NCBI GenBank assembly: GCA_054600435.1
Contig: BAAIJX010000079.1
Span: 47,568-67,567, forward strand
DNA length: 20,000 nt
Direction of reading: 5' to 3'
DNA from: Neophaeotheca triangularis
Lineage: Eukaryota
Part shown: positions 1 through 18,837 of the stretch, in pieces
Layout of the letters: each line of letters begins with the position of its first letter
How positions within the stretch are numbered: the stretch's first letter is position 1
The notes under the pieces: model-generated
Database searches by the model: none
The model's input: the letters and a program-made list of their open reading frames with translations, nothing else
Told to the model about the DNA's origin: nothing
Position numbers and translations under genes: made by a program

Positions 1-738
1 CTACAAGGTAATTATGTCTCGTCGATTAACGACCTTAGAGATGAGCTTCTTCTACCTTCTATTAAAGAAGGTCGTGCTATTATACTAGTAGATAAGCCTA
101 AGTTAGAGCTAGAGTAGGAGCCGGTAGATAAACTAGACTAGGAGCTACCGGAGTAGGAGCTAGTAATAAATAACATAGAGCTAATAGAGTAGGAGTAGTT
201 ACCCTAGAAGCGTGCCCCTACGACAGTCCGTACCCCGTTAGTTACGCCGCCTATAACTCCTACTTATTCGTTAACACCGAGTAGGGGTTAGGCCGTTTAG
301 ACGACTAAGAAGAAGGTTACTACTATAGAGGTTGTCGCTAATTCAGCCTCTTAGATAGTAGAAGGGTTTACATGCCTTAGCTAGTAGTTTGTAGAGCTCA
401 AGGTGCCCCCTACTACTAAGGTAATAACGCGGTTAAAGGCCTTACCTTACTTCTAAGCCTTAAGTCTTACCTACCGAGTTATGGCCTTCCATATTATCGT
501 AAACGAGACCGTAGCTACTACCTTCTTACCCCCTATTACTAAAGAGGAGATAGTCGAAATGCTCTATACCGAGTTTATAGAGCGTAGTGTATAGTTGCCG
601 TAGGAGGAGTCTATTAGTAAGGCCGTAATAGGAGTAGTTAAAGGTAGTATAGAAGAAGAAGAAGGTCGAGTAATAGGGGAAGAAGGTGTGTTTAGTGTTA
701 GCGAGGTTAAGGGCTTTACTACCTTAGGCATACATTAA
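1..738 (+). pseudogene. C-terminal part of a RIP-degraded ORF, probably the second (Myb/SANT-like) gene of the PIF/Harbinger element; begins before the window
   Basis: Frame +1 reads as a protein (LQGNYVSSINDLRDELL...acidic/Pro-Thr linker...AFHIIVNETVATTFL...) interrupted only by TAA/TAG, ending TAA 736-738. It is convergent with the Harbinger transposase. The Myb/SANT domain itself is not in the window, so the identity is inferred from Harbinger two-gene architecture. Confidence 0.5.
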
Positions 739-841
739 AGAAGCAGTAAGATATAGCTATGACTATCTACTATACTAATAAAACATGAGCTAAGGCGATA
801 GACGAGACTACATCCTTATACCTCTATAAAATTTAAGCTAG

Positions 842-1639
842 TTACATAACCTTAGACATCCCTTAGACTTCATCCCCTTTAGACATACCTTCGTACGGTA
901 TACTCCTAGTAATAACTAGCCCTAGTACAAGAGGCCTCTTTATATGTCGACAATACTAGCGCCACATCCTCTAAGCAATACGGTCACGCCGCGTAGTGAC
1001 AATAGGGCTCTTATAAGCACTAGAGGGCCGTCTAGTATAGCTGTATTCGTCGGTATTAAGGGTTAGGGGCGGTACCTCCTTATGCGCCGGTTAGCTATAC
1101 GAGTTTATGAAGTTATGAAGGCTATAGAGCGTATACACTAGCATTACCTACACCTTAATCGAATACCCTTGCCTAGGGCTATGTTTTAAGATCTCAAAAC
1201 GAGCCTTAAGTACACTAAATACCCTCTTAACGATGTTCTAGAGCTGTACATGGCGTAGGTTAAATAGTTCCTCTAGAGTCTCTAGTTTTACTTACGACTT
1301 ATACTACTCCTTAAGGTGATACCGCATCTTCAAGTAGGGTGTCAAGAGCGTCTTGTCTATAGCTATATACCCTACATCTACGAGCTAGTATGCCCTCTTA
1401 GGTATCTCAAACCCCTTCATCTTAGCTATATTTAGTACGGTACCGTCGTTCGTAGAGCCCTCCTACCCTAGTAAGACATATACAAAGTTCATGTCAAAAT
1501 CTACTACTACTAGCATGTTCTACGATATGAACCCCTTCTAGTTATGCTATAGACCTTACATATTAGCTAGTATTGCGGCTAGGATGTACGAGCCATTAAG
1601 AGTACTAACATACCCTCGAAAGAACGGCTAGAGCTTCTT
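842..1639 (-). pseudogene. PIF/Harbinger (HARBI1-like, DDE_Tnp_4) transposase, C-terminal catalytic part, RIP-inactivated
   Basis: Minus translation shows PFFRGYVSTLNGSYI (de-RIP GCVGALDGSHI), DFDMNFVYVLLG*EGSTNDG, LVDVGY, TPYLKMRYHLKE*, ELFNLRHVQL*NIVKRVFSVLKARF, LHNF and RDRIA*RMW, which are the hallmark Harbinger motifs. The 3' end is approximate. Confidence 0.9.
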
Positions 1640-1800
1640 TGACACAGTACGACAGTATGGGTCAGTATGTATGGTGTATAAAAGATAGGATAGACTCTCT
1701 ATCTACAGCTAAAGCTAGAAGTACACACTATACATACTCTCTCCCCCTCTAGGTAGGAAGCTATAAGCCACACCCACACTAGATAACTCCTGCCATAACA
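1640..1800 (-). repeat. 3' LTR (161 bp)
   Basis: TGACACAG...CCATAACA; 147/161 identical to 13838-13998 with no indels. Confidence 0.97.
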
Positions 1801-1860
1801 GGTAGGGGGCTCCTCATGCTTACTATGTCCTCATTAAGCCAAGACCGTCATGGTCCGTAG

Positions 1861-2110
1861 GAACCGAGTCGGTCAGTTTAAACCGAGTCGGTCGGTCTAA
1901 ACTGAGGGGGCTTGCCGAAACCGAGTGGGTTTGCCGAAACCGAGTTGGTTACGTCAAACCGAGTGGTTTTGTTCGAACCGAGTCGGTTAGTAGGCATCTA
2001 GATAGAGTAAAACCGTGCGTGGGGTCCAAACCGTGTCCGCGGCTTCAAACCGCGCTAGTAGGTTCAAACCGCGCTAGCAAGTTCAAACCGCGCTAGTAGG
2101 TCAATCCGTA
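1861..2110 (+). repeat. Subterminal tandem array, ~13 units, mostly 19-bp period, core (A)AACCG
   Basis: AACCG-like cores at 1862, 1881, 1900 (AACTG), 1919, 1938, 1957, 1976, then 2011, 2029, 2048, 2067, 2086, ~2104. Confidence 0.9.
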
Positions 2111-2243
2111 GTAGTAGGTTCGCAGCTCGTGGTCTAAGGCCGACGGAGTTAGGGAAGAGTATTAGCGTGTCACGCTACTAGGATGAGAAATTAGTGGACC
2201 GCGATTCTATTCGATGTGTAACTAAGGAAATATCTCGAACTAC

Positions 2244-2480
2244 GGGTAGGCAAAAGCCTTCGCTGGATGGAAATCGCTTGTGGGTAGGCGAAAGCCTTCG
2301 CTAGATAGAAATTGCTTGCAAGTAGGCGAAAGCCTTCGCCTAGTGACGCTAAGTTTCGGACGCGGGCTCCGGAAACTGAAGGCAGGTGAACACCTTCGCC
2401 TTAATCGCTATATCGGCAGGCAAAAGCCTTCGCCTAGGGAGAAACGCTAAGCTTAGAGGCAGGTAAAAACCTTCGCCTAG
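2244..2480 (-). repeat. Six copies of a hairpin-like motif (plus strand GGYAGGY-N4-RCCTTCGC)
   Basis: AGGY starts at 2248, 2286, 2324, 2384, 2418, 2461; the first three are spaced exactly 38 bp apart. Confidence 0.85.
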
Positions 2481-2661
2481 TAGACTAGAGGGAGAAACAA
2501 CGTAGGACAGAGGAGCGCGCATCGCGGTTATACGGCTAGGCCGAAGTCTACAGCTACCTTGTTAATTTTTTAGGTCAGTGTTGTCTCACTATATCCCGCG
2601 CTGACGCGCCGTAGTTTATATAGTCTTCGGACCGTGGCACTCCTAAGGAGTAAGGAGCGCA

Positions 2662-5601
2662 TCATGCTCTAAAGTACGGCAGCTAGTAGCGTGCGCGCCT
2701 AGCTAACCTAGTCTCTATAGGAGGAGAGGCCTTCTAGCGGCGCACTAAAGGTGTCTAGGCCATAGCCTAAGGGCCTACGTCGTCTTCGGTAAGGTCTATG
2801 AATTCGACCTTCTTGGCGCTAGACAGAGGTACTTTCCCGGGAAAATGGAGGAGGACGGGAAGGGTTTCGGCTACGTCGCGGACAGTCTAGGAGATGCCGG
2901 AGGTATCGATTGTGACGGCGTCGAGCGCCTAGGCTTCTAGCCATTGTTTCTAGCTCTTTATCGTCTCCTACTCACCTTCCTACGGGCTAGGATCTTCGTA
3001 GATAGTGATGTCTCCCAAAATCATCCCTTTGTCCTATACGTCTTGTATTGCTTACATCCTCGCTCTTTGAACTTCCGCCGCCATGATAGCTATAGACTCG
3101 GAAGCTACCTTGACTAAGTCGTATTCCTTATGGGCCACCGCTATTAAGTTCATGGCCCTAGTGCGGACACCGTAGTCTACGCTGTTCATGTCCGACTTTA
3201 TACTGTCGTAGTTAGTCTCCGCGTCCTAGAAGGTGCTAAGGGCGTTGATTCGCGCCTCGTAGAAGGCGAAAGCCTTCTAGTTGTACTCGCCTTAGAACTA
3301 GCTAGTACGGTACTAATCAATCTAACGCGCGGGGGAGGTCGGTTGTGAATGGCTCTATACGCCGGAGGCGCGGCGGAACGGGTTATTGCGGAGAGATAGG
3401 CTAGTAGGTGTGCGGTTAAACGGGTCGTTCATGGCGCTCGTATTAAGCGATAGGAAACGCTGTCCGCTACGCGAGCTATACGCTAGTTGTCTACCGCTAG
3501 AGGTAGGCTGCAACTACGCCTACTAGTTACCCGATGTGCGAGGGTATTGGCCGGCTAGGGTAGCTTTTAGGTACTTATCTTTACGCCCCGAGAGGCCGCT
3601 AGACATTAGCGGAAGTTAGGCGCCTAGGACATAACTACTATCGGCTAGGGTTCGCGCTTGGCCGGAGTATTAGGTTAGGTAATGGCCGCAGCGGTCCGGG
3701 GTAGCTGCTCCGTCGCTAGTGACGCGGTAGAGGTGGGGAGGAATCTAGAAACCGGCTTCTGACAACGTGGCCTAGTCGTTACCCGCTGCTGTCGTCGGCG
3801 AGGTGGAAGTGGACGGCAATCCCATGTAGCGGAGGGGTATAGGTGGCGGGAACGCCGCCATTCTTGCCATGGGTAGCTCTATGTCGGTATAGCGTTCCGC
3901 CGTGTCATCTAGTAGGATATTTCTCTATCCCTAGACTAGGGGCGGGGTGCGTAGAGTGGCGTTTCGTCCCTCTAACTAACTGTTGACAGTCACGTCGGTC
4001 ATTAAGCGGTCGGGATGGCTACGGGGTAGCGATACTTGGTTGTCCATGAACTCGCGGTAGGCTAGAGAGATCCTATCCACATCGATAACCGTTAGCCAGC
4101 GTATTACTGTCTAGTCTACCTCGAGGTACTCCTCGTACTAGAACTTTTTGGCGCGGGCTTACCTCTACGTATAGTACGTGGACGGTTTAGTAGCGAGCGT
4201 GGGACGCTGCTATAGGAAGCTGCGCGGTAGGTTCGAGACTGTCGTCATCAGGTCTTTTTCTAGATCTCTAAGTGTCGTCAGGTAGTTGTATAGGTACCCG
4301 CTGCCGTAAAGCGTGTAGCATCCGTAGATGCACGCATACTACTACTTCCTACTTATGTTTAACTAGAGGATGCCCGGGCGTCCCCTAGGGCGGCGGTTTA
4401 GTACTAGCTCGCCGCGAGCAGTAAAGGTCTCGGGCTAGTTACGGTACAAGATCTCGCTAGTCAGGAGAGAACGCTCCGATATAAGCATGAGCTCGAGCAC
4501 GTCGCAATCTTCTAGCGCCGCATAGGTTAGTGGTAAGCTGTCGATGTCGAAACGGGAGTAGAAAGCGTAGTAGTAGTATAAGCCGGTGGTTTCGCCTAGG
4601 TTGAGCTCATGGCTAGGGTCACGTGTCATGCCGATGCTCTCGGGGCGCTCCGGTAGCGTATACATTTAGTAGAAGTCGTAGGGAACCTTAGGGTTTCCGT
4701 ACCACACAAAGTACGGGTTTGGTTACGCGCCTCCCATGTTAGCGAGGCAGTAAGTGATAAGGGGCTAGGGGCAAATCGTATAGAGTACCGCAAGACCGAC
4801 CGCGCGGAGGACGAGTTCGAAGGCGCCGTCTTGCTTAAGGGTTTAGACGGACGAGTGTTCTCCCGCGGTCAGGAGTCGGACGGCCGCTACGACTATGTTG
4901 TTAAAAACACCGTTCGGTGTAAGGCTTTCGAGTGTTTCCTAGGGATGTAGTACTCCTAACGAGGTAGTTACGAGCTCATAGGCGTTGTCGATGAGCGCGA
5001 CGTCTTGCGCCTTATTGCTATTACGTTAAGTAACTAGTCGAAAGATAGAAGTAAACAGTGGATCGGCCTACTAGTAAACGGTAACGCAATTAGTAAGCGA
5101 TTTGAAGGGTCGGAGCGAAGCTAGCTAGTAGGAGGCGTACTACTATAGACGGAAAGGGAGGTCGGTTTCGTGTAGCGCGAGTAGCTAAATTGTTCGAAGG
5201 TTGAGAGCGAGGTCTAAGAATGAAGGCGCTGCCGCCTTAAGGTCACAGAAAGTGTTATAGTATTCGGGAGTGTTAGGAAGGGTTATATCTACGCTTAGTC
5301 TTTCAAAAGCGACCTAGAGCTAACTGTCGCCCTCTCGGTAGCGGCGCGCGGCTTCTTCTACTGTCTCGTTAGGATTAAGCGCGCCCTATTAGATAAGTTC
5401 CTAGCGAGTGTTGTAACCGGGAAGATTTGTGAAAGGTGACGCCTGAGTTAGGGCCTAACGACGGATACGTAAGGCTTTCTTAGCCGGAGTCTAGGTTATG
5501 TCTACTACCGTGCCGGTAGGGACGCTGGGTTTGAATACCCGCGGCGTGAAAGTAGCGCGGCGGGGGTATAGAGGTAAGGTATACCTGTTTAGCGCCGGTA
5601 T
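2662..5601 (-). pseudogene. Extra ~980-codon ORF of unknown function inside the retrotransposon, downstream of pol, RIP-inactivated
   Basis: One frame from a putative RIPed ATG (ATA at 5601) to TGA at 2662-2664. It contains about 55 internal stops, all TAA/TAG, no frameshift, and protein-like composition throughout. It includes the called 76-aa ORF 4435-4665. Confidence 0.8.
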
Positions 5602-5830
5602 CGATGTTACAAACCGAAACGCTTTAGAAGGTAGTTGTGAAGAAGGTAGGGCTAGAGACGGTTAGGATGTTAGTTAAGTCGGTTGTTATAAGTTGAAAGG
5701 TAGGAGTTATGGTTAGGAAAAGGTGTCGAGGTAAGTGTTGTTGTTAGTATTGTTATGAAGCTAGCTAGCGCGTAAGCGAGCGGAAACGCGGCGCCAAGCC
5801 GCGGTTACGACGTCACCCCTAACGATGGCG
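5602..5830 (-). promoter_or_regulatory. Putative internal promoter/5' UTR of the extra ORF
   Basis: GC-rich block with TGACGTCG (CRE-like, ~5808-5815) and ACGCG motifs, followed on the minus strand by a C/T/A-rich leader typical of fungal core promoters and 5' UTRs. Confidence 0.35.
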
Positions 5831-5875
5831 TCGGTATCGATAAGGTGATAGTGATAAGGAGGTGTACACGACACC

Positions 5876-8800
5876 TTAGGCCTGTCTATAGAAGGCTAGT
5901 GTGGCAGACCTCGTCTACCTCCTGACTTCCCTACTAGTACAGATAGGGCGAGTCGGTATCACTAGGATTAGTACGCGGTTTGCCGTGGATGCTTGCTACT
6001 ATTCTTCTCTAGTTTCAGTGTCGGTGGGGGCGGCGCTCTTAGCCGCCGCTACTAGGGCAGGATTAGTTATTAGGGTATTAGGCTTCCTACCCTTAACCCT
6101 AAGGTCTCCCTCCGTACCGGGGTACAGCTCGTCATATTGGGCGACCATTTCTCGTGCGTCTAGTAGGTCGTCGATGTCGTACCATACGTTATGAGCTGGC
6201 CCCTAGCCGAGCCACTAGACAAGGTACTGTCTAATGTCTTTCCCCTATTGCTTTCTCGTTCTACGTGCTAGTAGCCTCTTAATCTCGTATACTCCGACTC
6301 CGTCTTCATCTAGGTATACGGGCCTAGGCTCGCCGGGTTCCTAGCTGTAAGGGTCTAAGCTAGTTAGCGCCGGTTCGAGCTATATAACGGACACGACGGG
6401 GTGTATTTTCCAGTGCGGTAGGAGTTCTAGCTCGTAAGCCAGCTTCCCGACGACCTTAGAGATCTTGAAAGGGCCATATCGCTAGGCCGCTAGTTTCTTT
6501 AGGATAAAACCAGGTATTAAGTAACCACGCTAGAGGCGGAGTAGGATGTTTTGACCCTTTTTGAACCGGATTAGACGGTAGGCTTAGTCGTATCTGTCCT
6601 TTATGGCTACTACTACCATCGAGAGAGCGTCTATTGCTTAATCGCGGGCTACCTGTCGTAGGGCGACGTAGTCTGCGACCGGAAGCTTAATTAGAGGGTC
6701 TAAGGCATCAAGGTTAGATTTGAAACCCTAGATGAGGATGTTCGGCACTTATGCCGTCGATACGTTCACGGCGTTGTTTATCGACGATTGTATGTGCGTT
6801 AGGGCTACTACCTAGGGGGTATCCGGGTTGCCGTAGACGAAGAACCGGAGTGCGATCTCGATAGTCTAATTAGTGCGCTCCGACTGCCCGTCGGTCTACG
6901 GGTAGTAAGTAGTGGAGGCAAGGAAGCGAGTGTTTAACTTGGCAAACACTCCCTTCTAGAAAGCGGAAAGCCACAAGGGGTCCCGGTCACCGATAAGCAT
7001 ATAGGGGATATTCCACTCCGCGCTACGGAGAGCTTCTAGCCATACCGCCGCCCATTCCGGTACGTTCTAGTCGTTCCGCCCCTTGACCAGCAAGATTTTT
7101 TTGGAAAAACGGTCTGTGACCGTGAGCATTACGTCAAAGCCATCTGGCGTTAGAGGAAGCCCCGTTACCTAGTCGGCTGTCTAGGTATAGTAGGGGATCA
7201 GCTTGACTTGAGTAGGTTGTAGTTCGCCGAGCGGCTTAGATCGGAGAGTTTAGCACACCATGTAGTCGGGGCAATACGCGATGTAGCGCTAGAGCTTGTC
7301 TACTAGTCGGCGGATGTAAAAACTAGCCTATATGCGGGAGTAAGTCCGGAAGAAGCCTACGTGATAGTAGTTATCATGTGCCATGCGGAAAATTTCTTGG
7401 AACAAGGGCTTAGGGATGTAAAGTCGTTCGCGGCTATCTTCCTCGTCGCGGAAATAGATCAACCGGTCTCGTAGAAAGAAGCGCAGTCTAAGGGGACTAG
7501 ACTCTAGTTCGCCGGCAACATCCTCTAAGCTGCCCGCCTAGCCGTCGCTTTACGTAGTGGCGTTGTCTAAGGTAGTACGGGCTTCGCACTACTCTAGCTA
7601 CTAGAGTCGCGGCTGCTAGAAAGTGTCGTTTACGTAGCCGGTTCGAATCTCCTCTTTGAAACCGTCGTCTATTACGACTAGGGTGGTATGGAACACTACC
7701 GTTATCTATTCCTCGGCGAAATTGTTGTAGTAGGCGGCCATACTGCTATCGAAATAGTTCTCGTCGGCAGCCTAATTGGCCTCCTCGTAGCCAAGAGGGT
7801 CGAGGGTATCGGTATCTGGTTCCTTTGTTGTAGTGGCTCTATCGCCTAGTAGACGGCTAAGGGCGTCTAGGACTAGGTGGATTCGTCCCGGGCGGTACCT
7901 AACGTCGAGGTCGAACTAGCTAAGGTACTACGCTACCCGGACTAGGCGGAGGTTCAACTTATTAGTTGAAGTAGTCGTGGTAAGGCTAGAGTGGCTTGCT
8001 AATGCCGCGACGGCGGAGTGATCCGTGAAGACCACCGTTGATTTTGTGAACGCCTAGATCATATGGCGGGCTTTTCGTAATAGCTATACCATGCCGGCCA
8101 TTTCGAGCTCCGTGGGCTAGTAATTCTTTTCGGCCGTCGTAAGAGCTTTACTGAGGAATGCTACTAGTTAGATGTCGTGACGGGGGAAATGCAATGCTTT
8201 TCCCCTGTTCATTACAGGTTCTAGGTCCCCTGCCACTATATAGACCACTACTCTAAAGCCGAATTCCTTTGATGCATCGACATCGGTATATAGCTGACAG
8301 GTAGGGTCGATGTAATATAGGAACGGTGTGTCGCGGAAAATGCCCTGTAGTACCGCGAAGGCGCGGTAGGCTGCTTCCCAAATTGAATCGTCTAGGGAAA
8401 CCGGCGTCTTCTCTAAAAACCGTTTACGCGCTCCGCCTTTAAGCGGGCTGTCCTTAAGGAGGGCCGTCTTTAGCATTTGCAATAGCTACACGATCTAGGC
8501 GTAGTAGGGCACGCATTGCCGTAGCTAGCTAGTGAGTCTAAGGTACTTTTCTAGGTCTTTGAGCGTTCGGGGAAACTAGAGGTCGACAATAGCCTTAACC
8601 TTGTCGTCATGGGTAGCTAGGCCGAGCCCGCTAACCTACTAGCCTAGGAGGGTTATGGAGGGGAAACCTAGGAAGGTCTTCGCTAGGCTTAGACTGACTT
8701 TAACGGTGTTAAGGCGGCTAAACACCTATGCTAGGTAGTCTAGGTGTTCTTCTAGGGAGTGTAAGAACACCACGATATCGTCGATGTACGTATGGTAGAA

Positions 8801-11800
8801 AGGTCTTAGGTCGCGGAGAAGGTTGTCTAACTCTCTCTATACATAGGCGATCGAGTTCTTAAAACCCATTACCGCTACCTTAAAGACCTCTTGACCGCGA
8901 TAGGAGTTCACCGCCAACTTGTGACGGTCTTAGGCCGCTACTAACCATTAGTAGAAAAAACTGACTGCGTCTATAGTGGATATGAATTAGCAGCCGCGCG
9001 TTACCTATAGTAGGTCCTCTTGTAGGGGAAGGGGGTAGCTGTCCTTCTAGGTAACTTTGTTTAGCCCGCGGATGTCGACTACTACTCGGCCTTTTCGAAC
9101 CGGCAGCCCGTCCTTAATAACTGTTTTCTAGACAACGAAAACTAGGGAGGCAAAACGGGTGTGCTCGGTGCTCCACTCCATCTTGCCTTATACATAGAGC
9201 GGATCGAGCGTGTTGTCGACGACTTTTCGATCTACTACGCTGAGTGGGAAACCCTTTAAAGAAAGCTTGGCGGATTCCTAACCGTCACGAAGGGGTATCG
9301 GCATATGGCGCTACTCGGGAATGTCCACGTAGCGACCTTTGTCGATGAAAAGCTCCGGGAAGGACTACACTAATTTCTCTAGTGCGGTTACTTGGTCTTA
9401 CGCTCCGTACACGGTAACGCCGTTTAACAGGACGGTCTACTCTACCCGGGGCACTTCCTTATAGAAGGCTGTCTTTAATGGGAGGGCGGCGAGACAGTGA
9501 CTGTCTAGTTCGACATGGTAACTGCCTTCTTCTACCCATTCCGAGACACGACTGAGTGTTAATCCCTCGTGGACGGACACGGCTAGTGAGGTGTCATTGC
9601 GAACCATTACGAAGCTGCACTAGGCATCTATAGCATAGTTGTAGCTAGTGAGGCCGGCTGGCAAATTAGGCGACGGTGTAAACTAGGAGTCTCTGTTTCG
9701 TGGTAGGAGTGGGAATGTGGCTTCGACCCTTAGTAACGAGTTTGGTAGGACCTGGCATTGTTTCGCTACTATAACTGATCTAGCGGTACGCATTCTGTCC
9801 CGCTGTTTAACTAGGAGCGGGGCCTACGCTCCAGTATAGGTACCTAAGGTGACTAACTTCCTCGGGATGTCGATCTTCATGCGCTATAGAGATATGATAT
9901 CCATGGCTAAAAGCATGAGCGGTTTGAGGTCCCGCATAACGTGCACCTCATGTCTCATTTCGTAGAGGACTCTCTATCCACTAGAAGCCGCGGGAATCTA
10001 GAAAGTAAGCAAAACATGTTCGCGGACCTCCCTTAACGAAGGGCCCACTCCTCGCACTCGAAACGGTAATTTAGACTTGATACGAGATATGGTAGGGAGC
10101 TGCGATAAGAGGAAATGTTCGTCGATGATAGATACTACCGCGCTAGTATCGAGGCAGACGGGGGTGTCTATATTTTGCTGCTAGAAACAGACAGGTATTC
10201 TAAGGTAATGGAAATTTCGAAATGCGTATCCCTCGTATACGGCACCTAGGGCCTACGACTTGACCATGGGTAGGCTCTTAGTCGGATCAGTAATTGTCTG
10301 CCCTAGGGCTTTGCCGGCTAGTCAGGCAGGATCGCTATACTCGGCTCGCAGGTAGCGATACAGTGCGTTTTTAGTGCCGAACTTAGTTTTGTAGTGCTAG
10401 CATCGTTGCTTTACTGGCCTCGGGGACGCTACGATAAGCGGTCGTAGCGCCTACTCGGTTATTAGTGTAATGGATACGACGCTACGGAGTGTAGGGCTGT
10501 GCTAGGGGAGCACCTTATTGACATATGTATCGAAAACGTCGTCCTCGGGAGCATAAAGATCATCGCTATTAGTGCCGTAGGCGATTAGGTCTACGAAGTT
10601 GTTCTTAAACTCGGCGAGGACATCCTCGCCTTCTAACTACATTTCTTCACCCTCGTCATCTATAAAGTTGTTAGAAGGGCGCGAGTCTTGGCGATTCTAG
10701 CTTTAGCGGTTTTGATTGCGCCAGGTTGCCGCTAGTTATTACTAGGCTAGTGTGTTGCGCCCCGCCTAGCCATCTCGTGGTGGCGCCGTATCTAAGCGGC
10801 GTTTAGCCGAAACGGACGCGTTTCTAAATGGTAGCGCTTAGGGCGTCTAAGTTAGCCTTTCGCTTAGGCGGGCGCTACTAGGAAGAAACGGCTGGCGTTG
10901 TGCTAGAGCCTATTAGGGGGGATTAGTCTGTAGGCGGAAACCGTTATTGTTGTTTCGTCTAGAACGGCAGTTGTTGAAGCCGCGGTCCTAGATGCTGTCA
11001 AATCGCTTACTAGACTCGGCTAGCTGAACTATCGGACGATTTAGGTAAAGGTCAGTCTAGGTGTCGAAACAGTCCTCTATTTAACGGATGAGGCTCTCTT
11101 AGGTTGTTCTTCTATTAGGCTTAGGGATGTTTTGGCGAAGGGGGGCCTCAATTTTGAGCTAACATTAGGAGAGGCGAGCTGTAAGGCTATCAATTTTGGC
11201 CTCCTACGCCTATCGAGTACAACTAAGAACGAATTCGGAGGGGGCGCGGCCACTACGCACGTCGTTACGTGTATAGGCCTCCCGGTTAAGGTTACTCATG
11301 GCAGTTATGACTAAGACTCGGAATTTATTGCGTAGGGCTTTTTCCCATCTCTTGATGCTAGAACTACCCCGGAGGTGCCGTCGCTCCGACTTAGTTAGCT
11401 ACGACATGAGCTAAATAGAAGCTCCTCCGCGAAGGCACTTCCCTAGGTGTTTATGCGTTTCGGACGACGAATTCACTTCGGCGTAGTCTCTAGTAGATTC
11501 CAAGAAGAAATGCACTGATCGATAGTACTACTTGTTCTAGGCTATAACCTAGTCTCTAGCTAGTGCCTTAGCCGTGCTAAGGTAGGGGTCAAAGTACCTA
11601 ACCTCCTCCGCTTTAAAGGGGGCATGTTTAGATCGAGAGCGAGAGCCGCTACGTTAGGGGCTGTCGACTCGGTCGCCGGAGTCTTCGCGATAGCGGCAGT
11701 ACCCGCTCCCACGGGAGCGGCGATTACGGCAGTTACGCCTACGGCTTCGGGATAGGCTGTTAGACGAGGATGATCCCGAGCTTAGGCTAGAGCTACTACT

Positions 11801-13315
11801 CGGGTCTTAACGCCGGTGGTAGCGAGTGCTATAGCGGCGTGGCTCGCGGTGGTGACTACGTCCACGAGGCTCGGCTAGAGGTTAAGCGTCGGCTAGGTGT
11901 TCGTTTGGCTCCTACGCCTAGAGGTTACCTCTACGAAGCCGCTCGGAGCGCGAGTAGTAGCTATCTAGGCGGCTGACAATACGAGAGCCGAAATTCGACT
12001 CGACTAAGGGCATGGCGTAGGCATGTTCGTTATAGAGATAGCGGTCGATTACGCTAGGAGCACTTACGGGGCCCGAGGGCTAGTTAGCTAGTAGGATGTC
12101 GTTTTGCGTAGGACTAGTAGCTACACTCTATCGGTTCTCTTCGTTACGGGACTCTTTACGGGCGGCAATTAAGTCGCGAATCTCGTTGAAACGAGCTTCG
12201 ACGTACGCCTCGTTACGTTCTTAGACTTGCTGTATCGATTCCTATAAGAGACCTCGGATCGCGTCGAGAGTTAGCACTTAGGCCTATTACTAGGGCGGTC
12301 GCTAGGCCGGCTGTTATAGGGGCGGTTACGCCGGCTACTGTAGCGGCTACTGCGGCGGCTACTACTACGGCTACTCGGGGTAAGGGGGGGCTACTAAGCG
12401 GTTTCGCTATACGCGCCTAGGCTAGTCGGGTTCCCCGTGTACGTCGGCCATAGTAGCTAGCTGCGTTAGGGGTAATAGGGGGTAGGAGGTAAGTTGTTCG
12501 AAACGGTGTGGGATATAGCGGAAACTCATGACAGACGCTTAAGTCGAGGGGGAAGACAGGCGTAGGCTAACTTCGACAGCTGAGTCTGTATTACTAAGAC
12601 GGGCTAGTTGTATTAGATCGAAGAGAGGCGGCTCGTTAGGCTAGGCGGGGTTGTCACTTATTGTAGTGCTAAGCGGGGACGAAGAGGGTAGGGGGACTTA
12701 GGGTGGAGTCGTAGGGGTAGTGGGTAAGGGGATCTACGGGGGGGATAGTTAGGTCTAGGGGGTAGGTAGAGGGATCTAAGGAGGAGACAGGGCGGGCAAG
12801 GTAGCTCGGGTAATAGGAGGGAGCTAGCGGTTCTACGACGGGCGTATCGTGCGGGGAGCGAATGTGGCCGCTAGTATGTCGGCTAGCGTAGATCTCTCGT
12901 GCCCAAATTGGAGGCGTAGGTAGTGCCGGATCCGTTCGTACTAAGCTAGGAAAGTCTTTACTGTAGCGGTAATGAGGGTCTTGTCGACGGACCACTACTC
13001 TAGGAAACCGAATTCCCCTTAGGGGGCTCCTCTAGGGTATACGGCGGTGACCTTCTTAGTAGCTTAGTGTAGCGTCTTGTAGCGGTTCTTCAATGCTTTC
13101 GACCGTGTAGGATTAGTGTAGAAGCAAAAGAGTTAATGAGCTTCCTTAATGTTGTCGGCACTTAACTAGGGTAAGGGTAAGGAAGCCACGGTTACGAAAG
13201 GGAAAGACGGCTTAGAGCTTGTTTACTATGTGAGGCGTAGCTGCCGAATCGGACAATGGTTATATCTAGGCGGTTTATCGCGATTTGAGTAAAGGGCGGC
13301 AGAAAAGGGTGTTAT
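5876..13315 (-). pseudogene. gag-pol: Gag-Pol polyprotein in a single reading frame (gag, C2H2 finger, aspartic protease, RT, RNase H, integrase, chromodomain), RIP-inactivated; start codon uncertain (RIPed ATA candidates at 13315 and 12661)
   Basis: All motifs fall in the same frame: gag FKAEEV(G)YFDP...CLRGGASI(W) ~11420-11620; protease VCLDT(G)A ~10140-10159; RT KGRVVVDIRGLN, DAVSFFY, YIDD at 8777-8788; RNase H LYTDVDASKEFGF and YWPTELEMAG-like; integrase H-H-C-C ~7250-7385, D(W)VTGLP, DRDP, P(Q)TDGQSERTN; GPF motif ~6470. Confidence 0.93.
6133..6289 (-). other. Chromodomain at integrase C-terminus
   Basis: YEIKRLLARR...QYLV*WLG*GPAHNVWYDIDDL...MVAQY follows the GPF motif, matching the chromodomain pattern YxVxWxG...xW. 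Confidence 0.88.
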
Positions 13316-13583
13316 GAGCGTAGCTCGGAGGGGCGAGAGGTTAGGGTCGCTAGCCTCGTGTAGTACCGGGCTATAAGGCGCCTAGGCGCGTATAGAGATG
13401 CTTGCGATCTTCTTAGACGCTTGTCTACTCTCTACTGTTTCGATGTCACCCTCGATAGCTCTTTTTCCACTCGGCTCTATACCGAGCTCTCGACTCTACT
13501 ACTAAGGCCTAGTTCTAATTGCTTTAGTCAGCGTCGGTCCGGGCTAGCATAGGTCACTTAGGACGGGTAAGGTCGCCGGGAGC

Positions 13584-13785
13584 TAGTCGGTTCGTGCTGA
13601 CGTAATCGGTTTAAGCTAACGGAGACGGTTTAGAGTAAGCGAGTCGGTTTAGACCAATGAAGTCGGTTTGACCGAAGCGAGTCGGTTTGAGCTAATGGAG
13701 TCGGTTTAAGCAGGTCTAGTCGGTTTAAACTAGCGGAGTCGGTTTGGGCGGGTCGAGTCGGTTTGAAACGGCGGAGTCGGTTTGA
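13584..13785 (-). repeat. Subterminal tandem array, 11 units with strict 19-bp period, core GAGTCGGTTT (plus strand)
   Basis: CGGTT at 13588, 13607, 13626, 13645, 13664, 13683, 13702, 13721, 13740, 13759, 13778. Confidence 0.93.
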
Positions 13786-13826
13786 AGAAACTGTCTAGGG
13801 ATGATCTTGATAGATCTTGACCTTCT

Positions 13827-13835
13827 CAGCTACTA
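13827..13835 (-). promoter_or_regulatory. Putative primer-binding site (tRNA-iMet-like)
   Basis: Two nt after the 5' LTR the minus strand reads TAGTAGCTG. Reversing one RIP change gives TGGTAGCTG, complementary to a ...CAGCUACCA tRNA 3' end, as I recall for filamentous-fungal initiator tRNA-Met. Confidence 0.5.
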
Positions 13836-13837
13836 CT

Positions 13838-13998
13838 TGACACAGTATGACAGTATGGGTTAGTATATGTGGTATGTGAAAGATAGGATAGACTCTCTAT
13901 CTACAGCTAAAGCTAGAAGTATACACTATACACACTCTCTCCCCCTCTAGGTAGGAAGCCACAAGCTACACCCACACCAGATAACTCCTACCATAACA
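13838..13998 (-). repeat. 5' LTR (161 bp)
   Basis: Direct repeat of 1640-1800, TG...CA ends, followed by TSD TTCTT. Confidence 0.97.
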
Positions 13999-14477
13999 TT
14001 CTTATTACTATAGATTTAGTGTAGAGTAGTAGTAGTTATAGGTAGTTAAGTCTTTACCTTATACCGTCGTATAAGAGTAAGCAATATTACTTTAATATAA
14101 CTATAGAGACTAGTAGGTAAGTGCTAGAATGTCCGCCGTAGACCCCTAAGACTTACTCCCCTAGTATATATATCTAAAAAGATCACTACCTTCTCTACCG
14201 CTTTAACTTAGTAACCGTCCTTAAGGCTATACTCGCTTACTAGCTTATCTACTAACTATATTAAGCTCTCTCTTATCATCCGGGTAACCTCCTTATACCT
14301 CTAGTCATTATTTAGTACTAACTAGGTCTCCTTTACCCCCTTACTAGGCTCTAAAACTAGAGTTTATTAAGGCCCTTATAGTATGTAGTACCGCATAAGG
14401 AAGGTTGTAAGCTCCTCTATGACCTTAATGTTAGCTTCTATCTAAGCGATGACGAGCTCGTCGAGCAGTCTGTTCAT
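13999..14477 (-). pseudogene. PIF/Harbinger transposase, N-terminal part
   Basis: ATG at 14477 (MNRLLDELVIA...). It continues ...LKDG..VKAVEKVVIFLDI...RGLRRTF*H...IYSNK and joins in frame across the TSD to KL*PFFRG at the left side. Confidence 0.82.
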
Positions 14478-14572
14478 AAGAGTAACGCGTATAGCAAAAG
14501 CAGTATAGGTTTATAAGAGTAACGCGTATAGTAAAGGCAGTATGGCAAAAGCAGTATGGCAAAAGCAGTATA
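14475..14572. repeat. Local tandem duplications upstream of the transposase (ATAAGAGTAACGCGTATAG x2; GGCAAAAGCAGTAT-like x4)
   Basis: Directly visible repeated strings. Confidence 0.75.
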
Positions 14573-14894
14573 GCTTGTAGTAGACGGAGCTATATACACT
14601 TTCTATAAAAACACGAACAAGACACGACAGGGTATGTACGAGCTATAGGCCATAGGACCATAGGGCTATAGGACTACGAAATACACCTCTAGGGGTGTAT
14701 TTTGTGGCTCCAAAAAAGACTACGGTCCTATAGCTCTTAGTGGCTCTAGAGCCATGGCGGAGCTACCATACTACTACGAACAGTCGGAGCTACCAGAACT
14801 AGGACCGCTAAGGTACCCCCAAGGTACCTCCAATTCACTAATTAGTAGCGAGCCGTGGTCATGGTCCTAGGACTACCGTGGTCCTAAACCCTAA

Positions 14895-14911
14895 CTGCGA
14901 ACAGGCCCTTA
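14895..14911 (-). repeat. Harbinger terminal inverted repeat (GGGCCTGTTCGCAG) and TTA TSD
   Basis: Resembles PIF/Tourist TIR consensus GGGCCYGTTYG. The partner TIR is outside the window. Confidence 0.65.
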
Positions 14912-15826
14912 GTACTAAGTTCCTAAGGAGGTGGACCTTGTACTTCTAGGTGGCGTCTTTTATCTAATTGGCTGAAGGTTGCTTGTAGGGTTAGAGTTGT
15001 AGTCTTGAGCCACTCTAACACTAACCCTATGGTGGACTAGTGACACCTTCTTTTTGACGACGGTAAGGTATTGATACTGACAGTATTGACTAGAGGTATT
15101 AGAATCGCTAAGACAGGTTAGGAAACACAGCTGAGTATTGGTGTGGAGTGATCAAACAACTCTTACCGCTAATTTACCTTATAAAGACATCGCGACTTGG
15201 GAAAACCAACTTGAGGCTCTCTCCCAAGCCCAGCTCATCCGTCGAGAGGCAGCGTCGGCGTATCAAATGACGACTCACAAGACAGACGTCCAAGAACACG
15301 ATACTTGTATACCTAATGAAGGACGCCAACGCATACGAGGGAAGACAACACGATTGTAAAGCACCCGCCGCCCCGTCCAGCCTTGCAGCACAAGATGATT
15401 CGCCACCCAACCTACCCAGGCAGTAAGGTAGCCGCCCGGATGCCTTTGCAGAAGCACTGCAGCAATCCTCAATCTATGCAATAATGTTAGCAGCCACCGA
15501 CCTTCGCTTGACGGACGCGCCGCCTGGCCTGCGGATGACCGGTGTAGCTCGAGCCCCTCACGCGGTCAGGACTCACAGGCTCGGCCTCCTCTTCTGCAAC
15601 CGGTGAACCAAGCTCCCCGAGCTCCATCAGTCGCGTAGCCGCTGCCACGCTGCTCCACGCGTGCCTGGGCATGTGAAGAAGCTGGTTATATGTCGACAGC
15701 CCCCGCTGTCCAGTGTCGTCTACTTGTCTTGTCGATGAGCTATCGTTTCTTTCACTTTCGCCCTACCGGTTCGCAGTGTTTACCACTGCTTACTCCTGTT
15801 TCTCGCTCCCTCTCGCAGCTGCAAGT

Positions 15827-18800
15827 ATGGCAGCCGAACATGGTATAGAGGACGACGCCCAAGTCGCATCAGCAAGCATAGCAGCCCAGCGTGGCATGGA
15901 GGACGACACCCAAGACTTAGATCTCGCACACAGTCTATCGTTCCAATCTTCCTCTTCAGTCTTCGCTGACATGGGCCAGATGTCTGGAGAAGCAACAGGG
16001 TCAGAAGACTGGAGGCGCTACACTTTCTTCGAGAACTTTGGTTGATCCAGGTTGACGACGATGGAGACGTCAAGGATAGAGAAATGCAATCATCTGAATG
16101 TGACAGCAAACACGCGGTGAGTACCGACAAGGGGAAGCGGAAACAGACAGAAGATGTCGGCAGTGGATTCTGCAAGCAAGAAGCAATACACACCCGCGAC
16201 AATGGATGTCATCGGAGCAATGCTACGGAATCGGAGGCGGACACATCCGCACATGATGAGCCAGACTACCCTCACAACAAGTACCCAGTGGGCTACGACT
16301 GTGAAACAATTGACGCTATTCGGATGTCTCTTGGTGAGGACTTTGAGTCAGACCCTTCACCACCCCTGGAGTTTGAAAAAGGCTGCCGGAACCCAAATTG
16401 CACCTACGAGCACTCATCGTTGAGCTGCAAGAGGTGTGCCAGGGTTCGCAAGTTTCCTGAGGAGGCTACCACGTTCAAGCTTGTGAAGTCCGATTGCCCA
16501 CACTTCCTCGCTGTCTCTTACTGCTGGCCCAAGCATCCGGATGAGACGCCAAAGTCGACGCCGCAGGAATATCAGTATAGAAAAGTTCTTCCTAATGGCG
16601 AAAGCAGGCTTTGGAATGATCACAAACCTCCCGACCATGTCGTAAGACGGGCAATCGCAGTGGCTCGAGCTTTCGATATCCGCCAGATATGGATTGACCA
16701 AGTTTGCCTATCTCAAGATGAAGACGACCGTGATCACCAGCTTTCCATTCAGGGAATTGACTTTGTGTATAGGCGTGCGTTCGCCTGCGTCGGACTGTTA
16801 GAGTCCGTCTTGGACGATCAAAGGCTTCTCGCCGCTTATTCTTGGTCATTTGGCTACGCCCGCCTTGAACGGCTTCCTCCAAACCTGGGCCAGGTTTCGG
16901 AAGATCTATTGCGCTTGTTGGACTTAATCAATCAGGATCCATTCAATCAGCGAGCGTGGATTTTGCAAGAGTGCATCTCCGGGGATGGACGCATGATCCT
17001 CGCCTTGCAGCTGGCTCCGGGCATCGATTTCCCACCACATCCCACCTATAGGCCGAACCTCCCTCAACCGATCCATTCGTCAATCTTGTTCGACCAAAAA
17101 GTCATCCGAGGCTTGGGAGGCCTTGTCGCACATATGTGCACCAGGCTAGACGCGCCTGATCGCCCGGCCAACGCCTATACTCTGAGCAACAGCTTCGACA
17201 GCATGTGGCCAAGCAAACCGAGTTACGAAGACTCGCATCAGGATTATCACGCCCAATCTGATGAAACGGGCTTAGGTGAGAGGTCTGTCCCTCGATGTAC
17301 CGCTGCGCTCGCTGTAACGTATATACGACGGCGAAAGAACCATTCAGTCAGCGATCGCTTGGCTATCATGGCCAACATTTGCGATTACGAGTTTCGACTG
17401 GACACCCGCAAAGTCAAAGACTTTAAATCCCTTGCCGTTGCCTATTTGACCCAGGCGCTCACGAACGGCGACTTCTCACTTTGCATACCCGAGCTCATCA
17501 ACACTGCAACTCAAGCCAACGGGATGAACCTACCGATCTCCAGGCTCGCTTCCATTTCCGAAGCAAGGCGCCACTGGGACTCACACTGGTGTCCACATCC
17601 AAACTCCTCTCTTCCGTTCACCGACTCGAGATACACGAGACCGAGATCTTTGCTAGCCATCAGAAACAGCATGAACTACTGGATACACGATACGGGGTTA
17701 CGCTGTCCTGCGACGATCTGGCAAGTCGAGGAAAAGATCGATCTCCGAAGCGTCCGTGACAGGTGGCTTTCAACATGGAATGACATGAAGTGTGTCGTAA
17801 TCGAGACACATAGAAGCCCACAAGAGGCGAATGGGTGGACTTATCTGGAGATGAATGAGATGGTTGAATGGGCACGTCAACATCAAACGGAGCTGACTCA
17901 TGATCTCATTGACATTCCCGACAGGTACAGGCCTTACATATCTTGTAAGGTTCCCTCGTCAATCGAAGAGGACGAACATGCCCGAGAACGGGCGCTCTGT
18001 AATCTTCTGATTGACATTCTGGGGACCATCGCTCGTCTCGGCTACTTCTCTCTGGCAGACAGCATTTGGATGTCAACACGAAAAGATGCGATGCCAAAAA
18101 TACCCGGGAAACCCGATGCCGATAATTTCGTTGACCTTCCAGACACTGTTTGGGAGCTGCTATACCTTCGGCTTGACTCGAAATCCGAGCATATATTCCA
18201 ATTTGACTGGAAGGACGCTGGCAGTTTCTATCAAGCCTGGATCATCGACAGGGTCATGTCAGAGGGCTACTTGTGGTATGGGGAGGCACAGGCCAGTACT
18301 TACGGCATGTGGTACGACAGGACGAAACACCAGCAGGGCGCGGCCGTCGCCGATACGACAGTCAGACCAGATCGATTGGCAGATAGCACCTTCATGGAAA
18401 GAGAGCGCGAGAAAGAGAGGTTGATGCAGATTTACAACGCAACTTCTCTACCCGGTGGAGACCTGCGGGACGATGATTTTGCCATGTCTTCCGCTACACG
18501 CACGACCAATGAGATGAAGACGGCAAACCACAAACGTGCAATGCGGAGGCATGACCTTAGGGGGCTTCTTGCAGCCTTCGACGTCGATGGTCCCACCACA
18601 ATTGCCATCCCTCTCGATGAGGAACTTGAGAGGCTGCCGCATCCGCCGGAGCGGACCATGAGCGTTTGCTGGAAGGTCGATCAGCTGGATACGCTCAAGC
18701 TCGATGCGGGCATCAGAGAAGATTTCGAAGCGACGGAAGAATATGGCCCTATCGCCAGGTTCAAGGTCACGGGCAAGGTGAGAGGTTGCTGGCCGCAGAT

Positions 18801-18837
18801 GGAATACGTTCCATGTGCAAGGTATGAATTCGAATAG
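15827..18837 (+). CDS. Heterokaryon-incompatibility (HET, PF06985-like) domain protein; 5' exon structure unresolved (main ORF 16042-18837, first in-frame ATG 16084)
   Basis: HET motifs FLAVSYCW, IWIDQVCLSQ, IDFVYRRA and NQRAWILQE, followed by SDRLAIMANICDY. Intact 931-aa ORF with no RIP signature. Probable upstream exon from ATG 15827. Confidence 0.9.

Follow-up and report, generated by a model that had tools for sequence, protein, structure and literature searches.

A RIP-inactivated fungal Ty3/Gypsy lineage with a conserved third ORF and mirrored 19-bp arrays at both ends, a candidate case of VANC-like self-recognition

The window, the whole stretch of 20 000 nucleotides from Neophaeotheca triangularis that was analysed, contains on its minus strand (1640-13998) a full-length, RIP-inactivated fungal Ty3/Gypsy retrotransposon of the 12-13 kb class, which belongs, as a dead copy, to an old lineage. 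This lineage carried an additional ORF under selection (ORF3) together with phased arrays mirrored at its two ends, a description that can be given with great confidence. The arrays are predicted to be bound, as double-stranded DNA, by a factor that the element encodes and that is specific to the family, with ORF3 as its foremost candidate; a reading of the arrays by ORF3, by the mechanism outlined below as a whole, is put forward tentatively, as rather less likely than not. The features of the element are as follows.

1635..1639, partner 13999-14003, no strand: target site duplication (TSD) TTCTT, flanking both element ends
1640..1800, minus: 3′ LTR, 161 bp, TG...CA
1801..1830, minus: pre-LTR terminal motif (GAGGAC...), with a C-rich tract in the place of the G tract of other families
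1850..2120, minus: 3′ array with 19-bp period, unit AACC-N5-GGTT-like and most conserved in its right arm
2248..2476, minus: hairpin array of six palindromic GGCGAA-N4-TTYGCC-type units, window family only
2746..5517, minus: ORF3, sense to pol and RIP-broken; the 5′ end may reach ~5700
~4010-5076, minus: conserved core of ORF3, followed by a low-complexity linker and a helical C-terminal part
5520..6139, minus: CT-rich spacer from pol to ORF3, compared with another family
6140..6340, minus: chromodomain at the end of pol (Pfam)
6340..10240, minus: pol (protease, RT, RNase H, integrase), by Pfam, with the protease motif from the translation
10337..10402 (approximate), minus: C2H2-spaced finger in the gag-pol frame, directly ahead of the protease
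11000..11680, minus: Gag core, same frame as pol
12750..13200, minus: lineage-specific Gag-pol N-terminal domain, no Pfam family, a rival candidate array reader
13587..13786, minus: 5′ array with 19-bp period, mirroring the 3′ one, unit AAACCGACTC..., most conserved in its left arm
13825..13837, minus: primer-binding-site position (AGTAGTAGCTGAG), a candidate position only, alike in the lineage and its sisters
13838..13998, minus: 5′ LTR, from LTR comparison

Direct TG...CA LTRs and a short TSD identify the element as Ty3/Gypsy, as does the domain order, in which RT, RNase H and the integrase zinc domain were recognized by Pfam and the protease was read as a motif from the translation. The two LTRs were 91% identical, with 14 differences in 161 bp that were exclusively transitions, and the gag-pol frame from 13600 to 6140 was interrupted by a single TGA. 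The chromodomain integrase claimed in an earlier note on this DNA was confirmed; PF00385 matched the end of pol in this RIP-damaged copy with an E-value of 2.1e-5 and 24.8 bits, slightly below the 25.1 cut-off, and chromodomain matches were found in seven further elements, giving the integrase C-terminal chromodomain of a chromovirus. The RT may have its affinity with the Ylt1-like lineage rather than with the chromovirus clade.

The ORF3 frame contained 57 stops in 985 codons, all of them TAA or TAG and none TGA, while the remaining five frames held 2-19 TGA. Comparison with a second copy (82% identical) located 89 transversions at third codon positions vs 23 and 19 at the others, and transversion-only pN/pS between these two copies was 0.19 over 923 codons and 0.12 within the core. 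Because the frame is free of TGA stops and shows purifying selection between the two copies, ORF3 was a true gene under purifying selection. The unknown ORF of ~980 aa reported previously is therefore real; its length is at least 924 codons (5517-2746) and ~980 aa is plausible. It had also been credited with a promoter of its own; the sole feature seen in the putative promoter region was the CT-rich spacer (5520..6139), which may be a promoter or a splice acceptor. ORF3 lay in the sense orientation between pol and the 3′ LTR in all eight elements, and between families its core (31-59% identity) diverges faster than RT (62-71%). The core was mostly not basic (pI 5.4-6.5 in five of six full-length cores), and basic NLS-like words were present near the C-terminus in five of the six intact homologues scanned. 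An Env-like ORF, which position and sense strand would fit, is disfavoured by a crude hydropathy test for a signal peptide and transmembrane anchor; no strongly hydrophobic stretch was detected in six intact homologues (best 19-residue values 0.79-1.61), and the two highest values sat within the core or ahead of the coiled part.

Intact ORF3 homologues were present in four named Dothideomycetes and include KAK3617380.1 (Elasticomyces elasticus), B0A51_11254 (Rachicladosporium sp. CCFEE 5018) and KAF2721752.1 (Polychaeton citri). A word-based search with the RIP-damaged ORF3 as query returned no match among 8000 candidates; a profile search yielded seven homologues, and one more protein came from later searches. 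No Pfam family was assigned to ORF3 or to nine intact homologues, the only three sub-threshold matches all being on homologue P0008. Searches with the ORF3 family produced two single-member matches in PHROGs (E 0.035 and 0.069), one match among PDB sequences (E 0.57) and a best score of 0.81 in the Atlas, inside the chance range, and no relative emerged when viral contigs were scanned, using RT and P0004 as queries. A 348-aa model (pLDDT 70.5) had no Foldseek match at E <= 0.001 in the PDB and viral libraries, and its top VIA Z of 4.3 was located on the helical part. The 233-aa core was modelled with pLDDT 83.9 and pTM 0.85 (four other models, 57.7-75.2); it gave no Foldseek match and no chain with Z >= 2 among 48 161, from which neither fold novelty nor exclusion of a family follows.

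Phased motif arrays at both ends had also been claimed, and these are well supported, with lag-19 matches at the two ends of the window element of 0.71 and 0.67 vs shuffle maxima of 0.41 and 0.37. Among the eight ORF3-bearing elements examined in the N. triangularis genome, all 14 ends carried the 19-bp array (lag-19 0.49-0.81; shuffle maxima 0.36-0.41), as did none of four control ends. The unit is a quasi-palindrome of ~13 bp, separated by 6-nt spacers that vary from unit to unit, and between families the arms differ on both sides (AACC-N5-GGTT vs AGTC-N5-GACT). The motif thus varies by family, while the 19-bp period and geometry are constant and both ends change in step. The 5′ array matched the reverse complement of the 3′ array of its own family (cosine 0.22-0.52 for cognate pairs; 0.01-0.06 for the window family against others). 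As the two arrays are 11-12 kb apart and lie outside the LTRs, copying of the LTRs cannot homogenize the ends.

ORF3 followed the chromodomain in all six elements with RT 61-100% identical and in two partial ones. The nearest sisters (RT 44-46% identical) had no chromodomain match, and the other 50 RT matches were 27-32% identical. ORF3 and the two-ended arrays occurred together across this one lineage; neither was present in the sister or distant elements that were examined, and the two sister elements were without arrays and ORF3 alike. The pol and ORF3 trees agreed where resolved, the ORF3 tree being built without P0007 and the long pol tree without C49m, with two rows flagged for composition bias. 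Co-occurrence therefore represents a single clade with vertical inheritance, and as the trees agree nothing decouples ORF3 from pol. Co-occurrence, put forward as a check in the earlier note, held throughout the lineage in this genome. At metagenome locus L043, outside the lineage, an intact ORF3 homologue ends ~45 bp ahead of an LTR-like repeat, and no 19-bp array was found beside it (lag-19 0.36). The LTR there starts with an irregular CGTCG cluster (nine within 200 bp, against 2.2 per kb elsewhere), and the locus shows a doubling of depth and, at 2656, an alternative upstream flank.

In the proposed mechanism ORF3 would act in the nucleus, where it would load on the two ends of each copy of its own family and sustain transcription of the short LTR (~150 bp), either by trans-activation or by countering silencing locally; this would be VANC-like in its logic. 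A comparison of RIP load gave no sign of protection from RIP in ORF3-bearing elements, the RIP index of pol regions being 1.35-2.30 in the lineage, 1.46-1.53 in the sisters and 0.21-1.69 in distant elements. ORF3 as the reader is weakened by the single clade, by the equal co-occurrence of the Gag-pol N-terminal domain, by L043 and by the RIP damage. The broader proposal, that an undescribed family of sequence-specific nucleic-acid-binding proteins co-diversifies with mirrored palindromic arrays in retroelement self-recognition and anti-silencing or trans-activation, convergent with VANC, is rather doubtful.

The arrays might instead be read by a Gag-pol product, either the N-terminal domain or integrase, which would gather cDNA ends or package the genome in the manner of subterminal sites in DNA transposons, leaving ORF3 a separate job. 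This is unlikely, and is favoured by the two-fold symmetry of the arrays, whose best-kept half points to the LTR at each end, and by L043, where ORF3 stands without a phased array. All six full-length lineage elements had the N-terminal domain, a candidate binder; the genome search turned it up at no other place, and the sisters lacked it. The obvious Gag-pol candidate was the Gag-linked C2H2 finger, which was found in all eight elements, including both array-less sisters, with a helix nearly the same across motif classes; it was rejected as a specific array reader because those sisters have it. The motif itself is C2H2-spaced, with no Pfam match in the window copy and a sub-threshold zf-C2H2_11 match (E 0.068) in the copy of another family.

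The arrays may alternatively act in genomic RNA, pairing of 5′ and 3′ copies joining the ends for strand transfer, dimerization or export, with ORF3 either a Rev- or CERV-like RNA factor or unrelated; this is less likely still. Cognate 5′ x 3′ duplexes were far below shuffles (in the window, for instance, -111 kcal/mol against -63 +/- 5) and were the best match in four of five families, the fifth tying with a sister family, and direct pairing would account for both ends changing together, no protein being needed. However, the same energies arise from any mirrored DNA site, the 6-nt spacers differ between units and no Rfam match was obtained up to E 1. Among 650 pairs, arm mismatches comprised 61 G-T and 89 A-C, a count for which RIP and motif-anchored sampling are confounders; as there is no G-T (G-U) excess, the balance leans towards DNA sites rather than RNA hairpins.

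A 3′ hairpin array was a further part of the module first proposed. Its six units are present and the region folds at z -2.9, but the hairpin count was not above shuffles (four vs a mean of 2.4, with 22 of 100 shuffles reaching four). The GCGAAG unit occurred in two of eight elements, both of the window family, and the hairpin array was rejected as a feature of the lineage. The candidate module is hence smaller than proposed, with ORF3 and the two-ended arrays but neither the C2H2 finger nor the hairpin array, and a separate promoter is only putative.

Lastly, ORF3 could be an independent accessory enzyme or cargo gene, with the arrays binding a host factor or staying alike by template switching. 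His, Asp, Asp, Arg and Tyr are invariant in all eight intact cores and, together with an invariant Trp, may make up an enzyme site; an ORF3 relic on C14 has no RT match nearby; and in the sister elements the slot is taken by another 3′ ORF, unrelated to ORF3, so it is interchangeable. This reading is improbable, as a host factor poorly explains family-specific motifs at a fixed period and neutral exchange fails to explain a 19-bp period across families with RT 62-71% identical.

If ORF3 is not the reader, the mirrored arrays still suggest an undescribed end-recognition step in Gypsy replication. The lineage comprises a number of families, each having a predicted motif of its own that is mirrored at both ends, and the candidate reader has natural homologues that are intact, which makes the idea testable. 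Neither mirrored 19-bp arrays nor the ORF3 family were described in the literature searched, which covered few subscription journals and not Repbase, and nothing on this lineage was found in PMC13159263 or PMC3248453.

Most of the additional ORFs known from LTR retrotransposons are unexplained. A survey of fungal Gypsy elements, PMC2864245, marks an 'add. ORF' (Fig. 3) and reports lengths reaching >13 kb; its elements with the 'add. ORF' may overlap the ORF3 lineage. Boty, as cited in the excerpt of PMC7264820, is likewise a fungal Ty3/Gypsy element with an extra ORF, brtn, which differs from ORF3 in being antisense. Retand and other plant Gypsy elements harbour further ORFs, along with tandem arrays, between pol and the 3′ LTR (PMC11963269, PMC7264820, in part), resembling the ORF3 lineage in a long stretch from pol to the 3′ LTR, a conserved extra ORF and family-specific tandem repeats. 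In the sections used, the Retand ORFs are antisense and mostly TRP28, whereas ORF3 is sense with no Pfam family, and arrays occur in about half of clusters with units of 8-100 bp, against one constant period here, at the two ends of all members examined; a Retand-type antisense ORF was rejected on orientation and on the lack of TRP28 (PF04195) in nine intact homologues. CERV of C. elegans Cer1, a spliced-mRNA product that exports genomic RNA (PMC10309623, in part), is similarly a novel, nuclear accessory protein of an LTR retrotransposon, a nuclear role for ORF3 being predicted only. TET/JBP dioxygenases of fungal DNA transposons, with none found in retrotransposons according to the part of PMC12730594 consulted, are likewise proposed to defend the elements that bear them against fungal methylation and RIP-like silencing; they are a known enzyme family, whereas no TET/JBP-type Pfam family was matched by the ORF3 homologues.

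VANDALs are Mutator-like plant DNA transposons. For VANC of Arabidopsis VANDAL, binding and demethylation have been shown, and the target motif changes between families (PMC5735166, in the part available). No sequence link to VANC was found, the ORF3 homologues, compared by Pfam only, having no family. The fungal elements, known here from sequence alone, differ from these plant DNA transposons in motifs that are palindromic, strictly phased and mirrored at two ends. The likeness lies in an accessory protein encoded and conserved in the element family, and in short tandem-array motifs in non-coding regions that differ between related families; if ORF3 reads the arrays, it would be a fungal retroelement counterpart of VANC and a new sequence-specific binding family.

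RIP damage was confined to bases 1–15000 of the window (composite index 1.0–2.5 per kb), the remainder being undamaged, and within this zone the minus strand carried a full LTR retrotransposon, flanked on both sides by a TTCTT duplication.

Features of the element and its surroundings.
950–1633, minus: RIP-damaged transposase gene (DDE_Tnp_4, E 1.1e-13), the insertion site of the element
1640–1800 and 13838–13998, minus-strand element: LTRs, differing at 14 of 161 positions by transitions only
12750–13200, minus: conserved N-terminal domain of Gag-pol, matching no Pfam family and restricted to the ORF3 lineage
14004–14520, right flank: probably the other half of the transposase gene (no significant Pfam match)
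15970–18837, plus: intact gene of 955 aa whose product has a HET domain (E 8.5e-16), adjoining the RIP zone

The interrupted transposase is presumably PIF/Harbinger-like. From ∼13600 to 6140 the gag-pol frame contained one TGA, against 14 and 21 in the remaining two frames, so gag and pol formed one ORF. Pfam matches in pol were to RT, RNase H, an integrase zinc domain and an SH3-like domain, with a chromodomain match slightly below the cut-off. At the polypurine-tract position (1801–1815) the sequence was C-rich in both copies of the window family and in the sisters (two related elements lacking ORF3), and a G run in four other families.

ORF3, the additional sense ORF between the chromodomain and the 3' LTR, lay in a minus-strand frame that, between 5700 and 2746, was interrupted by 57 TAA or TAG stops and by no TGA, while the other five frames held 2 to 19 TGA; a second copy (contig C100 of this genome, G000), 82% identical, likewise had no TGA in this frame. 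Between the copies (2750–5519) indels were of 6 and 3 bases only, and differences were skewed to third positions (transitions 225 versus 100 and 80; transversions 89 versus 23 and 19). The pN/pS ratio, restricted to transversions, a change RIP does not produce, was 0.19 across ORF3, with the core lower (0.12) and the linker higher (0.33). These data indicate that ORF3 was once a genuine gene. Codon bias in another family begins ∼520 bases past the chromodomain, where the ATG is preceded by a CT-rich tract; such a start would fit an internal promoter, although splicing may also account for it.

Searched against 1.84 billion proteins, a two-copy profile retrieved seven at E ≤ 0.001; an eighth came from a later search. 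The named homologues, from Polychaeton citri, Elasticomyces elasticus, Peltaster fructicola and Rachicladosporium sp., all belong to Dothideomycetes. Homologues have in common a core of ∼350 aa in which His, Pro-Pro, Leu-x-Asp-x-Asp, Trp, Arg and Tyr are invariant; a linker of low complexity comes next, and the tail is helical. The 233 best-conserved core residues gave a confident predicted fold (pLDDT 83.9, pTM 0.85). ORF3 is thus a member of a protein family. At metagenome locus L043 an intact homologue stops just short of the terminal motif found ahead of the lineage's 3' LTR; there contig depth climbs from about 5–6 to 14–15, and one contig shows an alternative upstream flank at 2656. An LTR would give both signals, and at least one homologue outside the genome is therefore probably carried by a retrotransposon.

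The genome yielded at least 58 RT matches, at least 6 at 61–100% identity to the window RT, at least 2 at 44–46% and at least 50 at 27–32%. Allowing for nested insertions, an ORF3 homologue followed the chromodomain in all six close elements, and in two partial ones. A period-19 (or 38) array lay just inside the LTR at all 14 available ends of these eight elements, and at none of four ends of two distant controls. The two sisters showed no ORF3, chromodomain or real N-terminal-domain match and no 19-bp array. The co-occurrence of ORF3 and arrays, which the earlier note proposed to check, was thus upheld, in one clade only, and so counts as one event. The sole further ORF3 match was a frameshifted relic (G000:C14:417856-418498) with no RT match nearby. 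The sisters (G000:C8:420611-428537 and G000:C2:11444-19760, about 8 kb) have another sense ORF in front of the 3' LTR; it is RIP-damaged, ends in a Lys-rich tail and bears no relation to ORF3. Lineage members were nested in one another on C49 and C100, as is expected where a chromodomain guides insertion into heterochromatin.

Each array unit comprises a ∼13-bp quasi-palindrome and a 6-bp spacer. The arms read AACC-N5-GGTT in the window family and AGTC-N5-GACT in the majority of the others; the centres vary by family, and the best-conserved half points to the LTR at both ends. Every 5' array is similar to the same family's 3' array read as its reverse complement, and cognate duplexes were 40–70 kcal/mol lower than shuffles. 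The LTRs do not include the arrays, and reverse transcription therefore does not copy one end to the other. Something has held both ends matched during motif drift, our strongest new observation; explaining the match takes either direct pairing or a reader common to both ends, and the match itself names no particular reader. The evidence from L043 is two-sided: its ORF3 has no phased array alongside, but its LTR opens with a CGTCG cluster.

Other proposed components of the module fell away. The C2H2-spaced finger, with a nearly identical helix, was present in every one of the eight elements examined, the two array-less sisters among them. The hairpin array is real but, being found only in the window family, lies outside any lineage-wide module. 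In one other family its place is taken by 47-bp and 59-bp repeat arrays (G000:C1:1067704-1068072, C49:71009-71424, C100:19565-19875), and the C8 element sits within an 18–21-bp tandem array on both flanks (G000:C8:476704-477040 and 504258-504651). RIP damage was no lower in ORF3-bearing elements than in others, so any anti-RIP role failed here, a comparison that bears on RIP alone and leaves chromatin or transcription effects aside.

The most likely reading, held tentatively, is that the arrays are putative DNA sites for ORF3, which on binding would keep its own family active. That a Gag-pol product reads the arrays is a close rival, possible but doubtful; its N-terminal domain is distributed as ORF3 and the arrays are. 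Pairing of the arrays at the ends of genomic RNA, another close rival, is rather unlikely; arm mismatches (A-C 89 versus G-T 61) lean weakly to DNA sites. An enzyme-like ORF3 unrelated to the arrays seems improbable. Pol and ORF3 trees agree wherever resolved, so no recombinant distinguishes these readings.

Mirrored, fixed-period, family-specific arrays and the ORF3 protein family were not found described in the literature searched, including the portion of PMC2864245 compared, which does record extra ORFs in fungal elements. Any likeness of ORF3 to VANC, the Arabidopsis VANDAL protein to which the earlier note likened it, would, from the part of PMC5735166 considered, be in working logic, and the system, with its putative binding and anti-silencing, is not classed as VANC. 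The nearest architecture, in the parts of PMC11963269 and PMC7264820 compared, is that of Gypsy elements that carry both extra ORFs and tandem arrays.
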